This document shows, piece after piece, positions 333 to 17,307 of a stretch of DNA of 64,000 nt. How positions within the stretch are numbered: position 1 is the first letter of the stretch; each line of letters begins with the position of its first letter. The notes beneath the pieces were generated by a model that worked only from the letters and a program-made list of their open reading frames with translations, ran no database searches and was not told where the DNA came from. The stretch comes from Spirochaetia bacterium (GTDB taxonomy: Bacteria > Spirochaetota > Spirochaetia > DSM-2461): the NCBI GenBank assembly GCA_963668315.1, contig OY764216.1, positions 3,040,001-3,104,000 of the forward strand, read 5' to 3'. A program made the translations under genes and the position numbers.

Positions 333-1496
333 TTATATTACGGGGTCGGGTACTTCATAGGTCCGCTGAAGGGGGGAGTAGAGGGAGCACCTGTCCATGA
401 CATCGTCGAATTCCTTGACAAGAATATTGATGAAGTAAACCGTGTTATCCACCATATTGACCTGGAAATAGTAGGGTAGCTGCCCATAGGAAAAGGAGAG
501 AGAACCGGAATAGGGAAACCATTCCTGTCCGCCCACGGGAATGTAATTATAGGAGTAATACATGACATTAACATCGGAGACGTCATTAAGAGCCACCGTG
601 GAATAGACAATCTTGTAGCGCAGATCCGATGAAGCGGCCCGGCTGTCCGAGGCCTCTGAAAAACTCAGGTTCAGTACAAAATCCTGGGCTACCGCGGGAA
701 TCCAGTCGGATCCCGTATCATCAACTGTTATGTCAGAGATTGCGGGAGCCGTGTAGTCGCAGAGAAAAGTATAAGGGGCGGAAGGCTGATTATAATATCC
801 GGACGTTCCGGCTTCGCAGCTTCCTCCGTTGAGAGATAAGAAGTATTCCCCTTCAGACAGTGATCCGCTGGGATCGATGGAGAAAATCCTGTCTTCCATA
901 CTTGGATATGTTATGGCGGCAAGTGGATAATTCGACGTGAAATCTTCGACAGTCAGTGTGGAATTGCTGATGAAATCGTTAAACTCCAGGGTTATGTAGG
1001 GAGTTGCAGTCTTGAAAATACGATAGGGTGATGTATTGATAGTATAGTCGGGAGAACCGTAAAAATGAGAGGTCAGCCCTCTGTTGAGATTGATCTCATA
1101 GGTCAGATCATAATAGGTATCTTCCGTTCCGGTATATCCGACAAAATCTTTGGTCAGAGTCATATTCTGAGAGGACTGCCAGTAGCGGTTGCTCAGGGTT
1201 ATATAATTGTAAAATGAAGTGCCCAGTCCCCGGTTGCTTACGGCGAAGGAGGCCGTATGGGGAGCGGTAAAATCCAGAGAGGGGGGGACGGTAAAGCTTA
1301 TTTTCTTATTGTCCCTGTCTATATTGCCGTAGGAATCTAAATAGAAAGCCGTATTATTGTAGCTCTCGAAGACAAAACTTTCGAAATCGAATACATATCC
1401 TGCTTCTTCCACCGGATCGTACCGGTTGAAAAAATCATCACAGGAAGCAAGAGCGACTAATAAGAATAATGAGGAAAACTTTTTAATTCTGTTCAT
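333..1496 (-). CDS. Hypothetical lipoprotein, Tyr/Ser/Thr-rich, probable Ig-like beta domains
   Basis: 387 aa ORF with lipobox-like LVALASC after a hydrophobic stretch. Composition is beta-rich, and the DYTAPAI linker is typical of Ig-like domain boundaries. Confidence 0.7.
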   Translation of the reverse strand: MNRIKKFSSLFLLVALASCDDFFNRYDPVEEAGYVFDFESFVFESYNNTAFYLDSYGNIDRDNKKISFTVPPSLDFTAPHTASFAVSNRGLGTSFYNYITLSNRYWQSSQNMTLTKDFVGYTGTEDTYYDLTYEINLNRGLTSHFYGSPDYTINTSPYRIFKTATPYITLEFNDFISNSTLTVEDFTSNYPLAAITYPSMEDRIFSIDPSGSLSEGEYFLSLNGGSCEAGTSGYYNQPSAPYTFLCDYTAPAISDITVDDTGSDWIPAVAQDFVLNLSFSEASDSRAASSDLRYKIVYSTVALNDVSDVNVMYYSYNYIPVGGQEWFPYSGSLSFSYGQLPYYFQVNMVDNTVYFINILVKEFDDVMDRCSLYSPLQRTYEVPDPVI

Positions 1497-1587: not shown

Positions 1588-2961
1588 CTAAAACCGATAC
1601 CCCAGGCGCAGTGATATCTGAGTAATATCCACCTGTCCGTCCTGTATGATCCAAGTATCGTTTCTCTGACTCACTTCCACGAGGAGTCTATCATAATTAA
1701 TGACAAGCCCTCCGCCCCAGGTGAGGAGGGTTCCGGCCGTGGATATCCGCTCTCCCTCCACATGCATACCCATCCAGCGGGACCCCATCTGTGCTTCGGC
1801 AAAAAGATTGACGGGAAAGGGAAACCTGGTCCTTCCGTAGAGGCCCATAGTAACGGTTGTAAAGAAGTCCCCCCTGTCGTTGGGGGCAAGGAAAGCAACG
1901 CGGCCGGTCCAGCCGAGGAAGTTAATAAGGGGGAGATCCTTGTTGATATCGGCCCGTAGAACCGCTTCTATCTCATTAAAAGGGGTTAGTATACCGGCTC
2001 CTTCGGCGAAAGTAAAATTGGTAACCGACTGGTCGAAAACGGCATCCGCAAGGGGAAGGCCGATGAGAAGGTCGGTTCCCCAACGCAAATTTTCGTAATA
2101 GTCTTCATCCCTGATCTTCTGCGGATCCACAATGGTAAATGCACCGGTCAGAACCATCTCTTCCAGGGGCGGATTGATCAGAACCAGGTCGTAGGATCCC
2201 GCCTTAAGCCCGACAAGATTGAACCAGAGAATTATCTCATCCTCGCTGATATATTCGCTGATTGGAAGACGGTGACGCTGACCGTCCCTTTCAAGAAAGG
2301 CTACGATATCTTTGTCAAAATTGGAGCCCTTGAGAATCACCCGGGGATTCTGGGTGTCAAGCAAAGCGGTGCGGGGTTCCAGCTCCGTCACTCGGGGGGA
2401 TACTTTTTCCTTAAGGGTAATGCAGCGTTCTTTCACCGTTTCGCTGCCCGAAGGATTTATAATACGCAGATCGTACTGACCAGCGGCTAGATGTTCCGTT
2501 TCCAGAACAATTTCTATTGTATTATTCCCCTTTTTCTCATAGGCAAGATTTTCCGCCTTACCGTCCCTTTCCAGTCGGATGAGGGCGCCTTCCATTATAT
2601 CAGAGGTATGAACCGTCACTCTTTGAGAGCGCTCGCCCGCAAAGATGGTATGGGGAGGGACGTCGATGATGACCGGCTCCAGATCTTTTAATACGGTCAG
2701 GGTAATCCAGTCTGTCACGGCATCGGTTTTTTCGAATTTGTTCAGAAAGCTGATCCGGTATTCATATTCTCCCGGGGAGAGGTCCAGATAGATAAGGGGA
2801 TCGCTTATTCTTCTTTCAAAGAGGAGCCGGTTATCCTTTTTCAGTTCCAGAAGGAAGGTATGGCCCGGCAGGTCTTCCCACTCCAGCTTGATCCCCTCCT
2901 GTCCCGGGAGAGGGAAAATGAACAGAAGGAATATAAAAGGAAAGATGATCTTTCTTGCCAT
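1588..2961 (-). CDS. Putative outer-membrane protein: Fn3-like + 2 IPT/TIG-like domains + C-terminal beta-barrel
   Basis: Signal peptide; LEW...LSPGEYEYRISFLNKFEK Fn3-like domain; two IPT-like repeats (GQYDLRIINPSG, GSYDLVLINPP). The amphipathic C-terminus ends LRLGYRF (beta-signal-like). Confidence 0.7.
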   Translation of the reverse strand: MARKIIFPFIFLLFIFPLPGQEGIKLEWEDLPGHTFLLELKKDNRLLFERRISDPLIYLDLSPGEYEYRISFLNKFEKTDAVTDWITLTVLKDLEPVIIDVPPHTIFAGERSQRVTVHTSDIMEGALIRLERDGKAENLAYEKKGNNTIEIVLETEHLAAGQYDLRIINPSGSETVKERCITLKEKVSPRVTELEPRTALLDTQNPRVILKGSNFDKDIVAFLERDGQRHRLPISEYISEDEIILWFNLVGLKAGSYDLVLINPPLEEMVLTGAFTIVDPQKIRDEDYYENLRWGTDLLIGLPLADAVFDQSVTNFTFAEGAGILTPFNEIEAVLRADINKDLPLINFLGWTGRVAFLAPNDRGDFFTTVTMGLYGRTRFPFPVNLFAEAQMGSRWMGMHVEGERISTAGTLLTWGGGLVINYDRLLVEVSQRNDTWIIQDGQVDITQISLRLGYRF

Positions 2962-4374
2962 CTATCCGTTCCATCCTAAGAGAAGATAGGGGGAAAAGGC
3001 GGTCATGGAGTGGGACTTGAAATGTGTCCAGTCTATGGAATAGCCCAGCTCATAGGTCATTTTTTTTCTGGTATATTGCAGCGCCGCTTCAATCCTGTTG
3101 GTAAAATCCAGAGAATTGACAACACGCCCCTTATTGAAAAAATAGAGGGAATAGGCCGATCCGAAACCGAGGGAGAGGAAGAGATTCACCGGGGTGCCCC
3201 AGTCGGAGAGATAAAAGAAGCTTCCGTCAAGGACTACTTGTGTCAGGGTAAGATAATCGGCAATGGCATCGCTGTACTGGGTATAATGGATCCCCGCGGC
3301 ATAACCCGATTGTCTAAGTAGGGGGAGAGTGTATATTCCGGAATTCTGGAATTTTCGTCTGCCATTCAGGGTGAACCCGAGAAACGAAGTCTTGAACAAT
3401 CGGTCGCTGTCCTTGTCCATGGGGGCGGACAGATGGTAGGCAAATCCGAAAAAGAGGGGAGAGGTTTCTCTTTTCATGCGGATCTGTTCCTCCTGGCTGA
3501 TGATTTTCTCTTCCAGGGCGAGATCTATTTCATTGGAAACCACACCGCCCTCGTTTTCAACGGAAATCCTGTATGTTCCCAGCGCCAGCTCCGACGGATC
3601 GAGGTAGAATGTTATTTCCTCCCCGTAAAAGGTCTCCATATTCTCATATCCGGCAGGGGAGGGCCCGTCTATGACAAGGCGGGCCCGGGAGGAGAAGTTT
3701 TCTCCCTTGATGAGAAATTTCCCGGGGCTGTCTCCCCTGTGGATGACGGAAGGAGAGATCGATTCTATGACAGGAAGACGGCGCTCCGTTATTTTTACGG
3801 CCCTTTCCTTGGCATATTCCTTATTGGAAGGATTGATAACAATCAGATCCCAGAGACCGATTTCATGAAGCATCTCTCCCTGAAAAACAACTTCAAGCTC
3901 CAGCCCTTCGCCAGAGGGGGCGCGGGATTCTTCATAGCCTCTTATTCTATCCTGACCTTTTACAAGGTAGAAACGGCACATTTCATCGAAATTTCTGCCC
4001 CTTATTTCCAGGGTGATGCTCTCTTCATCACTGTAGAAAAGATAAGGCGAGGACCCGTCTATGATGGGCTGGGGGTTGGGATAGACTTGGAGCGGGCTCC
4101 AGTCGCTGCGGGATGCCATTTTTTCGAATTTATTAAATACGGATATCCTGATGTTGTAGGTACCGGGATTCAGAAACAGAGGGAGGGAAGGTTCTTCCGT
4201 TCTGATGGAGTAGAGTATGACGCCACCCGCCTCTATCTCCACCAGATAATAACGGGCCCCCTCAACAGGGGCCCACTCCAGTAATTTCTCTTCCGCGGGA
4301 AACTCGGTGCTTTGCGCCGTAAGAACGAGGGAGGAGAAAAGGAAAAGCAGACAGACCGGTACTTTAGTCTGCAT
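2962..4374 (-). CDS. Putative outer-membrane protein, paralog of 1588..2961
   Basis: Signal peptide; LEW...LNPGTYNIRISVFNKFEK; IPT-like repeats (IRGRNF..GLWDLIVINPS, IKGENF..GTYRISVENEG); aromatic-rich beta-strand C-terminal region. Confidence 0.7.
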   Translation of the reverse strand: MQTKVPVCLLFLFSSLVLTAQSTEFPAEEKLLEWAPVEGARYYLVEIEAGGVILYSIRTEEPSLPLFLNPGTYNIRISVFNKFEKMASRSDWSPLQVYPNPQPIIDGSSPYLFYSDEESITLEIRGRNFDEMCRFYLVKGQDRIRGYEESRAPSGEGLELEVVFQGEMLHEIGLWDLIVINPSNKEYAKERAVKITERRLPVIESISPSVIHRGDSPGKFLIKGENFSSRARLVIDGPSPAGYENMETFYGEEITFYLDPSELALGTYRISVENEGGVVSNEIDLALEEKIISQEEQIRMKRETSPLFFGFAYHLSAPMDKDSDRLFKTSFLGFTLNGRRKFQNSGIYTLPLLRQSGYAAGIHYTQYSDAIADYLTLTQVVLDGSFFYLSDWGTPVNLFLSLGFGSAYSLYFFNKGRVVNSLDFTNRIEAALQYTRKKMTYELGYSIDWTHFKSHSMTAFSPYLLLGWNG

Positions 4375-7099
4375 ACTGTATTACCGGCGAAAGGATCACC
4401 GGAGCCTCTTCGATGGTATCCAGAGTGATGGAGAAAACGGTCCTTGTTTCGGGAGATGTCCGTACTATCCCGATATTTCCATAATCAATGACCGCTTTAA
4501 CGGTAAAGACGAACTGGCCCACGTCCAGTTTGGAAAGGTCCCTGAATACGAATTCTGTGCCGCGGTAATTATCCTGGAAAAAGATCCGGTTTCCCGACTG
4601 GTCATATAAAGAAAGGGTATATGTTGCTCCCTCTTCAACCTGTCCCCACCGGAATGTAAGGTCATCCTGATCGGACATATCGATTATCCCGTCCTCCGTG
4701 GGAGAGACCATCCTTACCGCATTCAGCGATGTAACCGGTTCAATGGTCATTTCCGACCTGCCCGCAGGGGACGTACGCCCGCGGCTGTCGATTCCGTTTA
4801 CTTCGATGACATAATCGTCCGGATAGAGATCGTCTATACGGTAGTAATTCTGCTTCGTTTCCCTCCTCATAAGCAGTGTCCCCGAATCCTTCTGTCTCAG
4901 GGTAAGGGAATAGTCGGGAAATCTGTAGGAGGAATCCCACCGGATCAACAGACCGTCCTGAAGAATTTCCAGCCGGTTTGCCGAGAACTGATCGGAAGGC
5001 GACGTGATCACTGGCGCCTGGTAATTGATGATCGAACCAATGGAAAAGGTGGACCGGGAAACAGCACTTGCCGCGGGAAACCCCTTTCCCTCGTCCTCCC
5101 TCAGGGATCTCAGCTCCATCCTGTAGTCTCCCTCCGATAGGAGGGACACATCAATGTCGTAGGATAGAATATCCGTGCCGGGGAGTGTAACCAGAGGGAC
5201 CGTTTCACCCTCTTTGAAAAGGGCTCCCTCATAGGCGATACTGTTAGCAATGTCACTCCATGATAATGTCAATTTTTCTTCTCCGATCACTTCAATAGTA
5301 CTGTCCGGACGGGGATATGTCAAATCGGGAGGCAGTAAGGGCTTTCTTACAGAGAAGGCTCTCCGTGTTCCCCCGAGAGCCACGCGGTCCTCTTCATCCA
5401 TGATATCGACCTGCCAGAGAAAATCGCCCTCTTCCCCGATATATTGGGTATTCTGAGGATGATCAAGGCGGCTGTTGGCAATAATTCTCTCGTTTCCATC
5501 GGTGATTTTCCAGAGTCTGAAACGGAAGTTCCCCCTCTCTGAAGAGTCCCATATAAAGGATATGTCCTCAGGGGAGAGGGTGATCGCTTCATCCGCTTCG
5601 GGGCTCAGAAGCTCAATGGTTTTGACCTTTTCCCTGTTTTGGAAGGTTCGTATTTCAGAGGAGTCAACCGGAACCGATCCATCGGTTAAGGGGATAATCC
5701 GCCAGTAATACGTTCCTTCCTCCAGCCCGCCTGCTGCGTCGTAATAATTCCTTGACGTATTTTCCCTGCGCAGAACCCCTTCCATGGAGGAATCAGCCGA
5801 GAGGATAAACTGATAAAGGGGAATCTCCGGGTCCCCTTTCCAGCTGAACCTGACACCCCTGGAAAAATCTTCGGGCGAAAGGGACGCCTCATTCTCGGGA
5901 GAAATCAGTTCGGGAGGCTGAAGCTCTTCCTGCCTGATGACCATAAGGATCCTGTCCTCCGTCGGGGAGGTTCTTCCGATGTTTTCAATTCCGTTGTACT
6001 GGGCCGTGACACGCCACCAGTAGGCACCTTCTGTCAGATCGTCGATTTTCATCTGGTTATACCGGGTTCTCCGGGATATGACAGGATTGGTCATATCCGA
6101 CATCAATCCCATTTCCAGTTCCCAGTATTCGGCATTTTCCGCTCCCTGCCATGAGAAGGTGGGGGAAGGAACCTGATCCCGGTAGGTTAATTCCGTTTCA
6201 TTCAGAGGAAGGAGTGCTTTCAGAGGAAGATTCTCCATAATTCTGATTTTACCGGTCGAGCTGAACCTGCTGTCCTCTTCTGTTCCGACACGCCAGAAGT
6301 AATCGCCCGGAAGAAGGTCGAGATTATACTCCTGTTCCTCAAGATCATCGGCCTGAAAAACGATCCTTTCAAAATCCGTGTCCAGTGCTATCCAGAGGGA
6401 TCGTGTTTCCGCCGGCTGAGGCTCAATCCAGGCGAAGCGCATCTTCTGGGTTTCTCCGAAAGTCACCCAGCTGCTGTTGTTGGGCGGAGTGGAGAGGATG
6501 AAGCTCATCCTGTCCACGCTGGTTTCCCCTTCCGGCGTCAGGCGGAACTGTTCGTTGGCCTCAATTTTCTCCTCACCCCGTGACACGTCGCCGGCGAGCA
6601 CTGACATATTGAAGATGCCCTTATCATCGGTTGAGAGGGTTATTTCCGAAGCGTTACCCAGTATGATGGGCTGGGGATTCTCCTCACGGAGATTAATAAG
6701 CCTAAGGGGTTCGCTTCTCTCCTCCGTCGAAAGGGCGCTGATGGTTCCGTCGAAATAAATGGTATTGTCCATGAGACTCAGAACAATGCGGGAGCTGTTC
6801 TCCAGCGAAATCTCCGTACCGTCAATAAGATTCATCATGATCGAGGAAAAGGCGTCGGAACTGATGGTATCCCCGTCAAAAAGATCATCCTGGTTATTGA
6901 GATTGTAGGTGTAATCGTCTCCGGAAATCTGTCTTTTGGGATAATAGGACAGATCGGAAACCGTGCCAATCGGTTCTCCGGCCCCCCGAATTTTCGATGA
7001 GATAATTTCCAGATACCGGGTTCCGGCGAAATAGAATACCGAGAGAAGGAGGGCGAGGGCAAGAAGATCTTTGAAAAGGGTTTTAATCCATAATCTCAT
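4364..7099 (-). CDS. Membrane-anchored FecR-like domain protein with seven Fn3/Ig-like repeats
   Basis: N-terminal TM helix and a FecR-like segment (LFDGDTISSDAFSSIMMNLIDGTEISLENSSRIVL). Seven repeats of L-x-x-P...F-x-W, most followed by G-x-Y-x-W-x-V or a variant. Confidence 0.75.
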   Translation of the reverse strand: MRLWIKTLFKDLLALALLLSVFYFAGTRYLEIISSKIRGAGEPIGTVSDLSYYPKRQISGDDYTYNLNNQDDLFDGDTISSDAFSSIMMNLIDGTEISLENSSRIVLSLMDNTIYFDGTISALSTEERSEPLRLINLREENPQPIILGNASEITLSTDDKGIFNMSVLAGDVSRGEEKIEANEQFRLTPEGETSVDRMSFILSTPPNNSSWVTFGETQKMRFAWIEPQPAETRSLWIALDTDFERIVFQADDLEEQEYNLDLLPGDYFWRVGTEEDSRFSSTGKIRIMENLPLKALLPLNETELTYRDQVPSPTFSWQGAENAEYWELEMGLMSDMTNPVISRRTRYNQMKIDDLTEGAYWWRVTAQYNGIENIGRTSPTEDRILMVIRQEELQPPELISPENEASLSPEDFSRGVRFSWKGDPEIPLYQFILSADSSMEGVLRRENTSRNYYDAAGGLEEGTYYWRIIPLTDGSVPVDSSEIRTFQNREKVKTIELLSPEADEAITLSPEDISFIWDSSERGNFRFRLWKITDGNERIIANSRLDHPQNTQYIGEEGDFLWQVDIMDEEDRVALGGTRRAFSVRKPLLPPDLTYPRPDSTIEVIGEEKLTLSWSDIANSIAYEGALFKEGETVPLVTLPGTDILSYDIDVSLLSEGDYRMELRSLREDEGKGFPAASAVSRSTFSIGSIINYQAPVITSPSDQFSANRLEILQDGLLIRWDSSYRFPDYSLTLRQKDSGTLLMRRETKQNYYRIDDLYPDDYVIEVNGIDSRGRTSPAGRSEMTIEPVTSLNAVRMVSPTEDGIIDMSDQDDLTFRWGQVEEGATYTLSLYDQSGNRIFFQDNYRGTEFVFRDLSKLDVGQFVFTVKAVIDYGNIGIVRTSPETRTVFSITLDTIEEAPVILSPVIQYAD

Positions 7100-9929
7100 A
7101 TTTTACTTCTTTCTCATCCACATCTTTCTTCAGAACGTCGCTGAAATCTCCTTCAATTCCCACATAGGAACGCATTTCATCCAGATCTTTCGGTCTGGCC
7201 GGATTATCCATCCGTCCGAGAACGGCGTAGATCTGCTGGGGTTCGCTCTTTCCCTTCACCTTGATCTTGTTCATGGGAACCACATCGTAGATGCCTTTCA
7301 CCTGATTATACGTGTCCGTGGATATGAGAATGTCCGTGCCCATAGGTTTGTTCAAAGGTTCGATACGGGAAGCCAGGTTTACCGCGTCGCCGATAACCGT
7401 ATATTCCATTCTGTCCTCCGAGCCTATCTGACCGGATACCACAGGGCCGGAATTGATGCCGCAGCCGATTTTGATAATGGGTTTTTTGTCTCCGCCCCGT
7501 CCTTTGTTGAACCTGATCAGGGCTTCCCTCATGGCAAGGGCGCAGTTGACGCAGTTTTCCGGATCATTCCCATGGGATTTGGGGACGCCCCACAGGCCCA
7601 TGATGGCATCACCGATATACTTGTCCACATGGCCCATGGTGTCGTTGACGCATTTGACCATTTCCGTCATATATTCATTCAGGAACTCCACCACTTCACC
7701 GGGCTCGAGCTTTTCCGAAATGGCTGTGAATGAGCGGATATCGGAGAAGAAAATCGTGGCTTCCTTTGTTTCTCCCCCCAGTTTCAGCTCTCCTTTCGCG
7801 GCCATCTCGGCCACTTCCTTGTTCACAAAGCGGCCGAAGGCGTCCTTCATTCTCTCCCGTTCCTGAAGACCGTGTCCCATGTCGATGAACGCCTGGGTCA
7901 GAACTCCCGTCTCATCCCGGTTGCGTACTTTCAGCTTCAGTTCGTACTGCCCGTTTTCAATCAGTTTCGTGGCTACCATGAGACGGGCGAGGGGGAGGGA
8001 GATCGTCTTGGAAAAGAAGTAGATGATGAGGATCGTCAGAGAAAGTATCATGATCATCAGGTAAAGATTCTGCCTGAGAATATCGTTGATGGGGCCGAAA
8101 ACGGCAGACCTTTTTATTTCGGAGACGAAAAAGAGGTCCCAGTCCTTGATTATGGTGAAAGCTCCCAGCATCTGCTCCCCCGGTTCCGGCTCTGTTTCCT
8201 CAGTACCGATTATCGTCTGCTGATAGCTTATCTGCTGGTTGGAAGTTGAGCCCGACTCTCTCACATAGGAGAGAATGGGATGGTTTTCATAATCCCCGGG
8301 AAGACAGGATGTCACGAGGGTCTTGTCCGGATGTCCGATCATCTCTCCCATACCGTTCAGAACGAAAATGGTCCTGCTGCCTGAGCTGTTGATGATATCG
8401 TTGAGAAGTTCCGCCGTCTGAACAATGATGATCAGGGGTTTCTGCCTGTTATCGCTCTCATCCCAGTAGGTCAGGATTACGCCCGTCACCGGTTCGGTAT
8501 TTCTCGTGTCCGTCAGAAAAAAGGAGGGGTTGAATGTCCTCCGGTAGTTCTGATCCCCCTGCCAGGCCTCTTCTGTCATGGACGCATAATTCTCCTCAAG
8601 AACACTGCTGATATAGTCCTTGCTGAAGTATCCCGGAGAGTTGTAGACCACATCGCTGGAAAGGAGTTCGAAGTAAAGAATATAGGGATAATCGTTTATC
8701 AGGGTATCTTCCAGATTCGCCCTGTTATTGTTGAGAAGGACTCTGAGTGTCTCCCGAAGGCTGTTGAAACTGTTTTTTGTATTGGTGGAGAGCAGGTCGG
8801 CGACGGTCAGGCTGTTCTGCTCTATCTCGCGGGAGAGGGTCTTCTCAAAGAGGGAGAAGGATATTACCGACATGGAGCTCATGGCCAGAACGATCACGGT
8901 GGAAATGATGAGTATAAGTTTGAAGCCGATGGAGAAGCGCACCCCCAGCTTTCGGCTTTTTGGCTTTTTCAGATCAAGTTCTTCGGGCAGTTCCTCGTCC
9001 TTGCTGTTCTGTTCGGTGAGTCTGTCGATTTTCTTAATCAGATCGGGAGGCATAATGGCCACCTCCCGGATTATTTCTTTTATCTCGACCTTCGCAGGGC
9101 CCTGGCTGACCGGCAAAGCCGCCGGTTCTTCCGGACGTCTGGACGGTTTCTTCAGAATCTTCAGAATGCTTCCCCTGATCTTCAGTTTCTCAAGAAGTCT
9201 GCTTCCTTCTTCTTGTCCGGAATAGAGAAAATACAAAGGCTGCCGGACCTGATCGTCCCGGACCGATTCGTAGGGAAGATCCAGGGGGCCCATAAGGGGA
9301 ATCTCACCCTTTGCCGTCAGGGAGGATAGACTGTCTATTGTCTGCAGAAGATCGTCCTGTCTGTTCAGATCAAGGTAGAAGAGTATGCGCCACTCATCAG
9401 GCCTTGCCTTCTCGAGATAATGGCGGGGAATACGCAGGGCGTGGGTGAAATCCTCATCCTTTCCGATGGAAAGGGTTTTGAGATCCCACTGAAGTTCCGT
9501 ATCAATCAGCCGCTTGTGGAAAAGCCTCGTCATGGCGGATATATCAAAATCGATCGACTCTCCGGTGAGAACGGACTCCCTGACATTGACGAAGAGTCCT
9601 TCGGCTTTTTTTTCTTCCAGCACCCGGAAGAGGCGGACGATATGTTCGATAAGGCGGTTGAGAAGGCGGTAATCTTCCGTTGAAATCGGGGAATTCCTCT
9701 CGGCCAGTTCCGAGGTGAAAGTGAGTCCCAGCTGCGCCATGGAGTTCAGGGGGGACAAGCCCATAAAAGTCCCCAGAAAAGAAAGAATGCGGAATTCCTC
9801 TTTCAGCGAAGCGATATCAGGTCTTTTGGCTGTTTTTAATTTTTTGTGTTCCATAAGAAGAGAACGTACATGGTGACCCGCTTCTCTCTTCAGGGATAAA
9901 GGTTGTTTGCTGCTCTTTTCTCTTTCCAC
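7083..9929 (-). CDS. Membrane-bound class III adenylate cyclase (TM-Cache-TM-HAMP-cyclase) with long cytoplasmic N-terminal extension
   Basis: Cyclase motifs FFSDIRSFT, VDKYIGDAIM and EYTVIGDAVNLASRIE; HAMP (PLARL..RDETGVLTQAF); two TM helices flanking a Cache-like region. Confidence 0.9.
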   Translation of the reverse strand: MEREKSSKQPLSLKREAGHHVRSLLMEHKKLKTAKRPDIASLKEEFRILSFLGTFMGLSPLNSMAQLGLTFTSELAERNSPISTEDYRLLNRLIEHIVRLFRVLEEKKAEGLFVNVRESVLTGESIDFDISAMTRLFHKRLIDTELQWDLKTLSIGKDEDFTHALRIPRHYLEKARPDEWRILFYLDLNRQDDLLQTIDSLSSLTAKGEIPLMGPLDLPYESVRDDQVRQPLYFLYSGQEEGSRLLEKLKIRGSILKILKKPSRRPEEPAALPVSQGPAKVEIKEIIREVAIMPPDLIKKIDRLTEQNSKDEELPEELDLKKPKSRKLGVRFSIGFKLILIISTVIVLAMSSMSVISFSLFEKTLSREIEQNSLTVADLLSTNTKNSFNSLRETLRVLLNNNRANLEDTLINDYPYILYFELLSSDVVYNSPGYFSKDYISSVLEENYASMTEEAWQGDQNYRRTFNPSFFLTDTRNTEPVTGVILTYWDESDNRQKPLIIIVQTAELLNDIINSSGSRTIFVLNGMGEMIGHPDKTLVTSCLPGDYENHPILSYVRESGSTSNQQISYQQTIIGTEETEPEPGEQMLGAFTIIKDWDLFFVSEIKRSAVFGPINDILRQNLYLMIMILSLTILIIYFFSKTISLPLARLMVATKLIENGQYELKLKVRNRDETGVLTQAFIDMGHGLQERERMKDAFGRFVNKEVAEMAAKGELKLGGETKEATIFFSDIRSFTAISEKLEPGEVVEFLNEYMTEMVKCVNDTMGHVDKYIGDAIMGLWGVPKSHGNDPENCVNCALAMREALIRFNKGRGGDKKPIIKIGCGINSGPVVSGQIGSEDRMEYTVIGDAVNLASRIEPLNKPMGTDILISTDTYNQVKGIYDVVPMNKIKVKGKSEPQQIYAVLGRMDNPARPKDLDEMRSYVGIEGDFSDVLKKDVDEKEVKYEIMD

Positions 9930-15870: not shown

Positions 15871-17307
15871 TCAATATGTACTTACGAAATGCAGAATTGA
15901 ATCGACAATTTTCTCAGCATCCTGATCACGGAGATTTTCGTTCCTCAGGGCCCAGGAGTTGTTGTCGTAATTGATGTTGCGGATTTCCATGAGAACGGCG
16001 CCGTCGCGGGCGGGATTACCGTTGAGTACATGCAGATTCTGTTCCTTGATGGAGAGTCCGGCAGGGAAGGATTCAATAAAGGCTTCGGCGAATTTTTCAG
16101 ACCTTTCCCTTTCCTCGTCGTCTTCCCCGAAGGTCAGAACGCCGCTTTGCGCAAAGCCGCCCGGGGTATTGTCGCAATGGATGCTGATGAAAAGGGAGTG
16201 CCTGTTCTTTTCCCTCTCGATAATCTCCCTGGCCGTTATCAGTCTTTTTTCCAGTCCGGCGCTTCCCCCTGCCGGCCATTCGCTCCAGGCTCCCGTCTCA
16301 TTGAGGGAGGGGGAATTGTACACTTCGTTCTTTTCATTGACGAAAGTTATCGAAGCATCGGGGGTATGGCGGATGTGGTGGTTGGGGCTGATTATGGTCA
16401 GGTCCGCATCGGCGCCGTGCTGGCAGAGAAGGGCGTAAACCCTCAGGGAGATATCATAGGCGTATTCATCTTCTACCACGAAGGCGGAATGGCCCTGACC
16501 GTCAATCGTTTCGACCACGGCACCCGGGTCGAGTCCGCCGTGACCGGGATCGATAACAATCGTCCAACCCTTCAGATCCCGGGAAAGGAGACCGGCCTTG
16601 TCCACTTCCCGGTCCAGTCTAGCAAGGACATCCCGGGCCATGGCGTAGTTTTCCACCGTACTGTTCTGGGAAAGTTCCCCGTATTCCAGCGAGGGCTGAG
16701 TCAGCCTTTCCGGCTCTCCGTTGAACCAGGGGCCCATCTCCGGTTCACGCCTGTCGCTCAGCATCGCCTTGAGTACGCTGACTCCCCGGGAAAAGCGGGA
16801 AAGGAGAGGAAGTTTAAGTTTCATCCCGGGAAAAATCCTTTCCGAAGGCAGATCATTCAGGCGGGCGATGGCATCGGTGGTCGTATTATAATCCGAGGCG
16901 ATTCTCCACAGGGAATCCCCTTCAGCAACGGTATAGGTATTGTCAGAGCTTTCCTCCCGGGGAAGAATCAGCCTCTGGCCTATCAGAATCTTTTCCCCGT
17001 CAATATGGTTTGCCTGACGTATTTCTTCCTGGGATATATCAGTCTCCCAGGCAATTTTTGAAAGGGAATCTCCCGGTTTGACAATCCAGTAGCTCTCTCC
17101 CGCGCCCAGGGGAATCTCCAGTTCGTCCCCCTCTTTAATAAAGCTTCCCTCCAGGCGGTTCGCCGCCATAAGATCGTCCACGGAAATCCCGTAATCGGAG
17201 GCGATGGAATAGAGCGTTTCATCCTTAGCCACCCGATGTATCTCTTCAGCGGTAAGGGTGAGTGTCAACAGGAAACATAAAGCTGTCAGAAATGGGATGG
17301 TTTTGAT
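15871..17307 (-). CDS. LysM-repeat N-acetylmuramoyl-L-alanine amidase (Amidase_3)
   Basis: Three LysM repeats; zinc-amidase motifs IDPGHGG, EDEY, SIHCD and LMEI. Start extended from the track's 17268 to the ATC at 17307, which completes the signal peptide. Confidence 0.85.
   Translation of the reverse strand: MKTIPFLTALCFLLTLTLTAEEIHRVAKDETLYSIASDYGISVDDLMAANRLEGSFIKEGDELEIPLGAGESYWIVKPGDSLSKIAWETDISQEEIRQANHIDGEKILIGQRLILPREESSDNTYTVAEGDSLWRIASDYNTTTDAIARLNDLPSERIFPGMKLKLPLLSRFSRGVSVLKAMLSDRREPEMGPWFNGEPERLTQPSLEYGELSQNSTVENYAMARDVLARLDREVDKAGLLSRDLKGWTIVIDPGHGGLDPGAVVETIDGQGHSAFVVEDEYAYDISLRVYALLCQHGADADLTIISPNHHIRHTPDASITFVNEKNEVYNSPSLNETGAWSEWPAGGSAGLEKRLITAREIIEREKNRHSLFISIHCDNTPGGFAQSGVLTFGEDDEERERSEKFAEAFIESFPAGLSIKEQNLHVLNGNPARDGAVLMEIRNINYDNNSWALRNENLRDQDAEKIVDSILHFVSTY

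Follow-up and report, generated by a model that had tools for sequence, protein, structure and literature searches.

Can a single protein domain be divided between two neighbouring genes and thereby join the inner membrane of a spirochaete to its outer membrane? This question is raised by a minus-strand operon within 64,000 nucleotides (nt) of Spirochaetia bacterium DNA (assembly GCA_963668315.1, contig OY764216.1, positions 3,040,001 to 3,104,000; hereafter the window), whose genes were read and modelled by computation; the support for strand donation given below is likewise computational. Five consecutive open reading frames (ORFs) encode an adenylate cyclase with a HAMP domain, a rod protein of fibronectin type III (Fn3) repeats (P0001), two barrel proteins (P0002 and P0003) and a predicted lipoprotein. 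The first four overlap or abut, by 17 nt for cyclase and rod, 11 nt for rod and P0002, and 0 nt for P0002 and P0003. We propose, with a probability of roughly 60%, that the C-terminal tail of the rod inserts into the barrel protein and that, through the continuous periplasmic rod so formed, a signal from the surface or strain in the envelope reaches the neighbouring cyclase. The opening steps of this mechanism, namely the complementary truncation of the two proteins and the predicted insertion of the strand, are regarded as highly probable.

The rod tail and its putative acceptor domain

As shown by translation and modelling, the rod has its membrane anchor in the N-terminal region and closes with a free opener, the pair of strands (A and A') with which each of its repeats begins, and the barrel protein begins at strand B after its signal peptide (strand letters are our own assignment). 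P0001 (911 aa; 4364..7099, minus strand, as for all genes of the operon) comprises an N-terminal membrane anchor, a FecR-like domain, seven Fn3 repeats and the orphan tail. Its AlphaFold2 model (57 sequences, mean predicted local distance difference test score (pLDDT) 87.7) features an N-terminal helix with a hydrophobic anchor and almost no cytoplasmic domain (residues 2-37; 6989..7096), a FecR-like beta domain (residues 45-197; 6509..6967) and the seven repeats (residues 198-893; 4421..6508). PF04773 (FecR) is matched in 43 of 57 aligned rod homologues and gives no match in P0001 itself, and a Foldseek search with the whole rod returned generic tandem Ig/Fn3 matches only. The initial annotation had drawn attention to seven repeat openers (LSTPP, LLP, PELISP, LLSP, PDLTYP, PVITSP and MVSP) and to an orphan opener at the C-terminus; all seven are present in the translation, and the rod does end EAPVILSPVIQYAD. 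Inside the rod, the distance from opener to Trp, read from the sequence, is about 22-25 residues.

Repeat 7 is modelled as segments 797-799 (A), 804-807 (A'), 814-818 (B), 826-832, 838-845, 849-852, 861-873, 878-881 and 885-892 (G). Beyond it, residues 897-904 and 906-911 fall below pLDDT 50 without secondary structure in the monomer model, the last 15 residues being unfolded; the tail is thus not packed against repeat 7 of its own chain. The candidate donor, PVILSPVIQYAD (residues 900-911; 4367..4402), would supply strand A and then likely A'; it is unfolded alone and is part of the interface in the complex model described below.

The two ORFs downstream start their mature chains close to the Trp strand, as had been noticed earlier (QSTEFPAEEKLLEW and QEGIKLEW after hydrophobic signal segments), with 13 residues between the end of the signal segment and Trp in 2962-4374 and 7 in 1588-2961. 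P0002 (470 aa; 2962..4374) carries a signal peptide, an incomplete Fn3 N-domain, two IPT-like domains (TIG match below cut-off) and an eight-stranded barrel. In the model of the mature protein (78 sequences, mean pLDDT 93.0), the acceptor N-domain (residues 29-99; 4078..4290; W34) consists of strands B to G only: its seven segments correspond to the last seven of the repeat 7 list, with neither opener present and disorder over the first five residues. The domain is homologous to repeat 7 (hhalign 96.8%). Of the outcomes that the initial annotation had set against its own proposal, neither a complete seven-stranded N-domain nor a tail packed on repeat 7 was found in the models. Two segments (A and A') are missing in P0002, not the one strand that had been supposed.

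The barrel of P0002 (residues 308-469; 2968..3453) is of the OmpA/NspA type, with eight antiparallel C-terminal strands in the model and best fold matches to NspA (Z 18.8, root-mean-square deviation 2.4, 151 aligned), OmpA (Z 18.0, 2.5, 154 aligned) and OmpW. By the established topology of eight-stranded barrels, which lack a secretion pore, domains ahead of the barrel remain in the periplasm, and the N-terminal domains of P0002 would therefore stay there. P0003 (457 aa; 1588..2961), whose ATG directly follows the P0002 stop, is a paralogue (24% identity, E 4e-20). In its putative acceptor N-domain (2686-2895; N-domain profile E 1.3e-19), LEW, NKFEK (2728-2742) and the Trp ahead of strand G are retained, and the B-C loop is one residue shorter. 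The genome holds one rod gene and two barrel genes, and the tandem barrel pair recurs in both close relatives. Relatives carry the label Spirochaetales. The two barrel proteins may be alternatives that compete for one tail, as the initial annotation had supposed; since class III cyclases are active as dimers, it may also be that two adjacent tails are available and each barrel protein occupies one. By their scores against NCBIfam NF047756 (the LIC11435 family; 83.6 and 69.1 bits over the N-terminal 160 positions only, with a cut-off of 380 bits), they are relatives of that family as judged from sequence, not members.

The tail and acceptor were folded together as P0001 787-911 and P0002 22-103, each with an 80-row alignment and rows in matching order. 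The complex scored 0.72 in three runs, with at least 96% contact agreement and a partner pLDDT of at least 89, and the best of three controls scored 0.00; the mark for this test is reached by 116 of 157 solved pairs and 2 of 215 mismatched pairs. In the model, P900-L903 lie antiparallel to strand B of P0002. The lowest-error pairs join W34 with P900, V901, I902 and L903, E33 with I902 and L903, A35 with V901 and L903, and I77 with I902. Residues 906-911 of the rod and 93-101 of P0002 both belong to the predicted interface and would probably pair as A' and G. The last 12 residues of the rod would thus take the place of the missing first strands of the barrel protein's Fn3 domain, with I902 on W34 and 906-911 likely running along strand G. 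The earlier proposal that the tail completes its partner's Fn3 domain in trans is in this way predicted for P0002 from the complementary monomer models, conservation and the complex model.

The complex model also contains a second contact patch that the initial annotation had missed. The NKF hairpin of P0002 (residues 81-85; 4120-4134) is predicted to dock into an LxxLDxG pocket of repeat 7, formed by LSKLDVG (855-861; 4517..4537) with M808 and L893; F83 contacts L855, S856, L858, D859, V860 and L893, and K82 contacts M808. By this docking of F83, the N-domain would become an in-line eighth repeat of the rod. Solved structures retrieved by sequence search show an Asn-containing F-G hairpin in titin Fn3 domains as well; what is seen here may therefore be an ordinary tandem-Fn3 contact, now between two chains. 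No similar complex was found among solved structures by sequence search, the matches being titin-type Fn3, FN3con and phage tip protein J.

Conservation and distribution of the pair

Conservation statistics were drawn from 79 pairs that were left of 100 after removal of those more than 90% identical. When scored with a repeat profile whose training left out the final 20 residues, 57 of 90 rod tails (a set that includes close kin) exceed 5 bits as openers, compared with 3/75 cyclase C-termini, 5/77 barrel C-termini, 11/79 segments preceding the acceptor Trp and, in 200 shuffles, a mean of 15 and a maximum of 26. Orphan tail openers therefore exceed chance. Among 15 aligned homologues, with identities as low as 24%, 13 close with the form PxI(L/I)SPxxQY and two end differently, and 63 of 80 tails extend 21-22 residues past the last conserved Phe. 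Thus the tail is kept across the phylum; its lack of conservation had been named beforehand as a sign against donation. On the acceptor side, alignment of the N-domains to the tail-free repeat profile begins no earlier than position 8 in 81/81 cases (no earlier than 14 in 75), and internal rod repeats align from positions 1-5 in 361/390. As for the second patch, the hairpin motif is found in 68/79 N-domains vs 4/390 rod repeats, and LxxLxxG[FY] in 59/70 last repeats vs 78/320 internal ones. A 50%-representative profile search was swamped by large tandem-Fn3 proteins and served only as a control set.

Rod and barrel genes overlap in 48 of 75 loci. In the window (4364-4374), the last codons of the tail overlap the P0002 start, and the tail Tyr codon with its following base forms the barrel gene's ATG, as it does in 37/75 loci. 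Among the 27 loci without overlap, the position of I902 is hydrophobic in 25, P900 is kept in 11 and P905 in 15; the hydrophobicity at I902 persists even in two loci with 285 and 389 nt between the two genes.

The barrel profile matched 112 of 301 spirochaete genomes. The 82 loci examined are 80 regions picked for diversity from 150 listed matches, many similar Leptospira matches being left out, and two from a pattern scan of genome contigs. The order cyclase-rod-barrel holds in 72 of them, and rod and barrel lie no more than 30 nt apart in 71/75. The remaining ten comprise two in which the three genes are neighbours but the barrel gene is inverted, two cut by contig ends, one without an N-domain match and five lone barrels; four lone-barrel genomes each carry a cyclase and tailed rod elsewhere, and two others carry the full triad elsewhere. 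With a threshold of E 1e-13, the profiles of the N-domain and of the last repeat select the same 108 of 301 genomes (45 of the matches belong to one family), with no match at this level in the other 193. At E 1e-4, where generic Fn3 matches enter, they select 139 and 127 genomes with 120 shared. Barrel proteins differ widely in length and middle domains and keep the N-domain, rods range from 3 to 7 repeats, and many genomes hold two or more paralogous systems; in the Leptospira-type genomes L100, L101, L103 and L104, paralogous systems of one family carry distinct tails. Repeats 5 and 7 of the window rod (4421-5350) share an LLxxG/LDxG sub-type, and in five-repeat homologues the tail aligns with the repeat 6 opener, which suggests that the rod may have grown through duplication of a two-repeat unit.

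Beyond the sampled phylum set, three FecR-Fn3 proteins end in a conserved orphan opener. In two metagenome loci of that family, the rod overlaps the barrel gene by 4 nt, the mature barrel chain begins at the Trp strand, the barrel protein's first Fn3 matches the profile only from position 17-18 and its second from 2-5, and a HAMP cyclase lies close by on the opposite strand. These loci (L123:5001-8773 and L124:5001-10587) share the orphan tail, an acceptor domain without openers and a C-terminal barrel-like region; the genes upstream we take to be phoB/phoR/phoU-like and pdxJ-like. The first metagenome scan for this design had returned no locus. A natural rod-barrel fusion was found neither among 100 matches of a longer-protein search nor in the 82 loci, which is weak evidence of absence. 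In G240 (L120:3201-7988), cyclase and rod form a single 1596-aa ORF; an A-run at the junction has one base fewer than in a relative, so this fusion was set aside as a probable assembly error or recent indel. In two further loci (L114:3129-4631 and L115:5767-7341), a different 500-aa gene follows the rod, and the barrel gene lies elsewhere in both genomes.

The cyclase, comparable systems and competing explanations

What might such a joint be for? The gene before the rod (7083..9929; start codon uncertain) encodes a class III adenylate cyclase (Pfam Guanylate_cyc, 1.4e-26, and HAMP), with two membrane segments, a periplasmic Cache-like region, HAMP and the catalytic domain, for which PF00211 scores above its cut-off. 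Class III cyclases use metal-binding Asp residues and a Lys/Thr pair that specifies ATP, and the catalytic D, K and T motifs are present in 56 of 69 homologues. Among 15 homologous cyclases, 11 have weak dCache_1 matches below cut-off and none has CHASE2, which is also absent from the window cyclase. Genes with cyclic-nucleotide (cNMP)-binding domains, possible receivers of cyclic AMP (cAMP), number 15 matches in the window's genome and 5 in genome G102. One such gene (G000:C1:3037061-3038320) is encoded on the opposite strand about 1.7 kb ahead of the first position of the window, beyond two unrelated genes, possibly by coincidence. The cyclase itself has an N-terminal cytoplasmic extension of about 330 aa (window 8940-9929) without a Pfam match, and the open frames of its homologues range from about 540 to 1090 aa. 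The initial annotation had envisaged a load-bearing link and overlooked this conserved cyclase, whose presence favours signalling over a mere strut. In the proposed relay, the FecR-like domain or the membrane helix of the rod would contact the periplasmic region of the cyclase and HAMP would set cAMP output, as gene order and the precedent discussed next suggest.

The NsrA-CyaK/CyaD relay of Sinorhizobium meliloti, in which an outer-membrane barrel is linked to an inner-membrane adenylate cyclase (PMC7529298, PMC5498481), is by analogy the closest functional model, and clusters with a CHASE2 cyclase, FecR and TPR are known in Campylobacterota (PMC9239204). Common to these and the window are an outer-membrane barrel, an inner-membrane cyclase and a FecR domain in the cluster, and genetic linkage of barrel and membrane cyclase was found in the 72 of 82 ordered loci. 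The window barrel, however, is small and eight-stranded whereas that of NsrA is given as residues 600-1200, and the cyclase is of the Cache-like/HAMP kind, not CHASE2, in a system without TPR. Also unlike NsrA-CyaK, a membrane-anchored Fn3 rod carries the FecR domain and would be connected with the barrel through the predicted split domain. The window system shares with FecA-FecR-FecI a FecR-type periplasmic domain on a single-pass inner-membrane protein and an outer-membrane partner (PMC12036975). It differs in that the rod has no cytoplasmic anti-sigma domain (the membrane anchor starts 2-19 residues after the last Met in 67 rod homologues), the upstream gene is the cyclase and not a sigma factor, and the outer partner is a modelled eight-stranded barrel, not a TonB-dependent receptor; the likely output, unlike that of FecIRA, is cAMP. 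The GT.F pattern of the Gly-Thr autoproteolysis site is found in 4 of 57 FecR regions.

The initial annotation had likened the joint to chaperone-usher pili. In these (PMC13721041), as in the Pam pili of the candidate phyla radiation (PMC13278184), an incomplete beta-sandwich is completed by another chain's strand, and this part of the likeness holds in prediction. The remainder does not: the donor would be the C-terminal tail of a different protein, not an N-terminal extension, and the acceptor would be an Fn3 fold without first strands that ends in a barrel, giving one heterologous joint between two membrane proteins and no polymer. The five operon ORFs contain no chaperone or usher family, the rest of the genome not being searched for them. 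The system would work like NsrA-CyaK and, by the features tested, is not a member of NsrA-CyaK, FecIRA or chaperone-usher systems.

Homologous genes in the same order as in the window occur in Treponema pallidum (TP0483/TP0484) and Leptospira (LIC11435/LIC11436/LIC11437); the window copy differs in its seven repeats and two barrels. In the G102 locus, proteins in the clusters named TP0483 and TP_0484 FecR family lie behind a cyclase, and three Leptospira barrels fall in clusters named LIC11435 family. LIC11437 is annotated as adenylate/guanylate cyclase, and by gene numbering LIC11436 is likely the rod of the Leptospira system. In the accessible literature, each of these proteins is considered on its own, whether as adhesin, vaccine candidate or Anosmin-1 mimic, and not as part of one complex. 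TP0484 was earlier modelled on Anosmin-1 (PMC5956850), and a 2026 modelling paper describes TP0483 as a small Fn3-containing barrel with four loops, its main text, as far as accessible, leaving TP0484 and TP0485 unmentioned (PMC13749626). Reviews report fibronectin binding by Tp0483, and the blocking peptide spans residues 316-333, in the C-terminal part of the 374-aa protein (PMC10118025); by homology this peptide would lie in the barrel, not the N-domain. A full-text search, with most subscription papers outside its coverage, returned no description of the triad as a unit or of a split-Fn3 envelope link.

Several observations weigh against a split domain at the heart of a periplasmic relay. 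The foremost evidence against a periplasmic rod is the surface-adhesin result for LIC11436, which is reported to bind fibronectin and to raise adhesion when expressed in a saprophyte (PMC11350617); the outer-membrane location of Tp0483 is itself disputed (PMC10118025). Among the 90 tails, 33 score no more than 5 bits as openers, including most Treponema-type tails. Treponema tails diverge and their barrel partners carry an extra N-terminal segment, which may supply part of the sheet in cis, and a second Leptospira paralogue has a tail without the hydrophobic A' part; the mechanism may be modified in both. As an observation in its own right, Treponema-type loci (L041, L046-L049, L053-L056, L059, L065, L090, L094-L096, L098, L099) show a coupled change of donor and acceptor, with a GxLYG-like tail end and an aromatic-rich segment before the Trp strand of the barrel protein.

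Parts of the statistics must be discounted as well. Late alignment is also seen in 602 of 1367 domains of 150 unrelated tandem-repeat proteins and was therefore rejected as stand-alone proof of a missing strand; the stronger argument is the short distance from the signal's hydrophobic core to Trp, which at 20 residues or fewer in 46 of 79 barrel proteins is below the 22-25 that an opener needs. Of 55 conserved tail tyrosines, 37 coincide with the ATG of the gene that follows, so part of the tail motif has a non-structural cause, and a purely structural role for the tyrosine was partly rejected. Covariation at predicted contacts (top pair F83-M808, with K82-D812 and F83-D859 among the high pairs) is 1.25 vs 0.40 for an entropy-matched null, a level that within-clade shuffles also reach (mean 1.16, maximum 1.28); it is inseparable from phylogeny and was rejected as independent support. 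As for co-occurrence, many of the counted genomes had also gone into training the profiles, and related genomes are not independent of one another. Split-domain halves tend to pass the complex test through their likeness to solved Fn3 folds, so a pass shows fit, not binding, and the use of our own paired alignments means that its calibration holds only roughly.

How far do these points favour other explanations? The two proteins could act separately, for example as surface adhesins, with a stable or self-swapped N-domain and a tail kept by the overlapping start codon. The fibronectin binding reported for LIC11436 and Tp0483, the frequent gene overlap and the high pLDDT of N-domain models without the tail agree with this, but even where the genes do not overlap the tail keeps its length and its key hydrophobic residue (25/27), the complex model has clean controls, both halves co-occur exactly, and the system occurs in free-living lineages and metagenomes; we consider such separate action improbable. 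If the strand does insert, the completed rod might merely tether the membranes or set the width of the periplasm, beside a co-regulated and uncoupled cyclase. About ten in-line beta-sandwich modules could span 30-40 nm, and in titin Ig domains an A'-G strand pair under lengthwise load acts as the mechanical clamp, strand A being an early-detaching edge in Fn3 domains. A pure strut is nevertheless very improbable given the position of the cyclase, directly before the rod in most loci and beside the pair in both metagenome loci, the retention of the FecR-like domain in 43/57 rods, a rod length that ranges from 3 to 7 repeats, and the 193 of 301 genomes without a match at 1e-13.

An alternative possibility is that the same strand insertion serves as an assembly checkpoint, where the cyclase reads occupancy of the tail, that is, barrel assembly or envelope integrity, and not an outside ligand. 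This agrees with every structural result from the monomer and complex models and with an N-domain that is kept as barrel length and middle domains vary, and the tight gene coupling suggests a fixed stoichiometry. It is nonetheless unlikely: divergent tandem barrels in close relatives and multiple paralogous systems fit a variety of ligands better, and a ligand-binding region has been mapped in Tp0483, according to a review. A relay of surface signal or envelope strain through the completed rod is thus preferred. At even odds, we extend it to the proposal that an undescribed trans-envelope machine for cAMP signalling, present in much of the phylum and perhaps beyond, uses a naturally split Fn3 domain as its standard coupling, with barrel, strand-locked rod, FecR and HAMP cyclase in one mechanical line and interchangeable barrels on the same tail.

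Neighbouring genes and biological meaning

The last gene of the operon encodes the predicted lipoprotein (387 aa; 333..1496), which had no family match above cut-off in a family profile search. It lies downstream of the barrels in the three closest loci, that is, in the window and both close relatives. A multi-LysM protein at window 15871-17268, whose C-terminal domain is presumably amidase-like by its motifs, is unrelated to the system described here.

If the proposed mechanism is correct, an inner- to outer-membrane protein joint would be made by splitting one domain between two genes, a design of which no description was found, for any envelope bridge, in the literature searched. Three genes that have been studied singly in T. 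pallidum and Leptospira would become one likely signalling unit, and an input for spirochaete cAMP would be suggested. The Fn3 part of Tp0483 and LIC11435 would be periplasmic with only the barrel loops exposed, which would be relevant to vaccine-antigen work. More speculatively, recombinant halves would expose an unpaired strand or groove and, because fibronectin itself consists of Fn3 modules, this could affect fibronectin binding assays. Under the wider proposal of a standard split-Fn3 coupling, the syphilis 'adhesin' Tp0483 would be a receptor with a periplasmic Fn3 domain.

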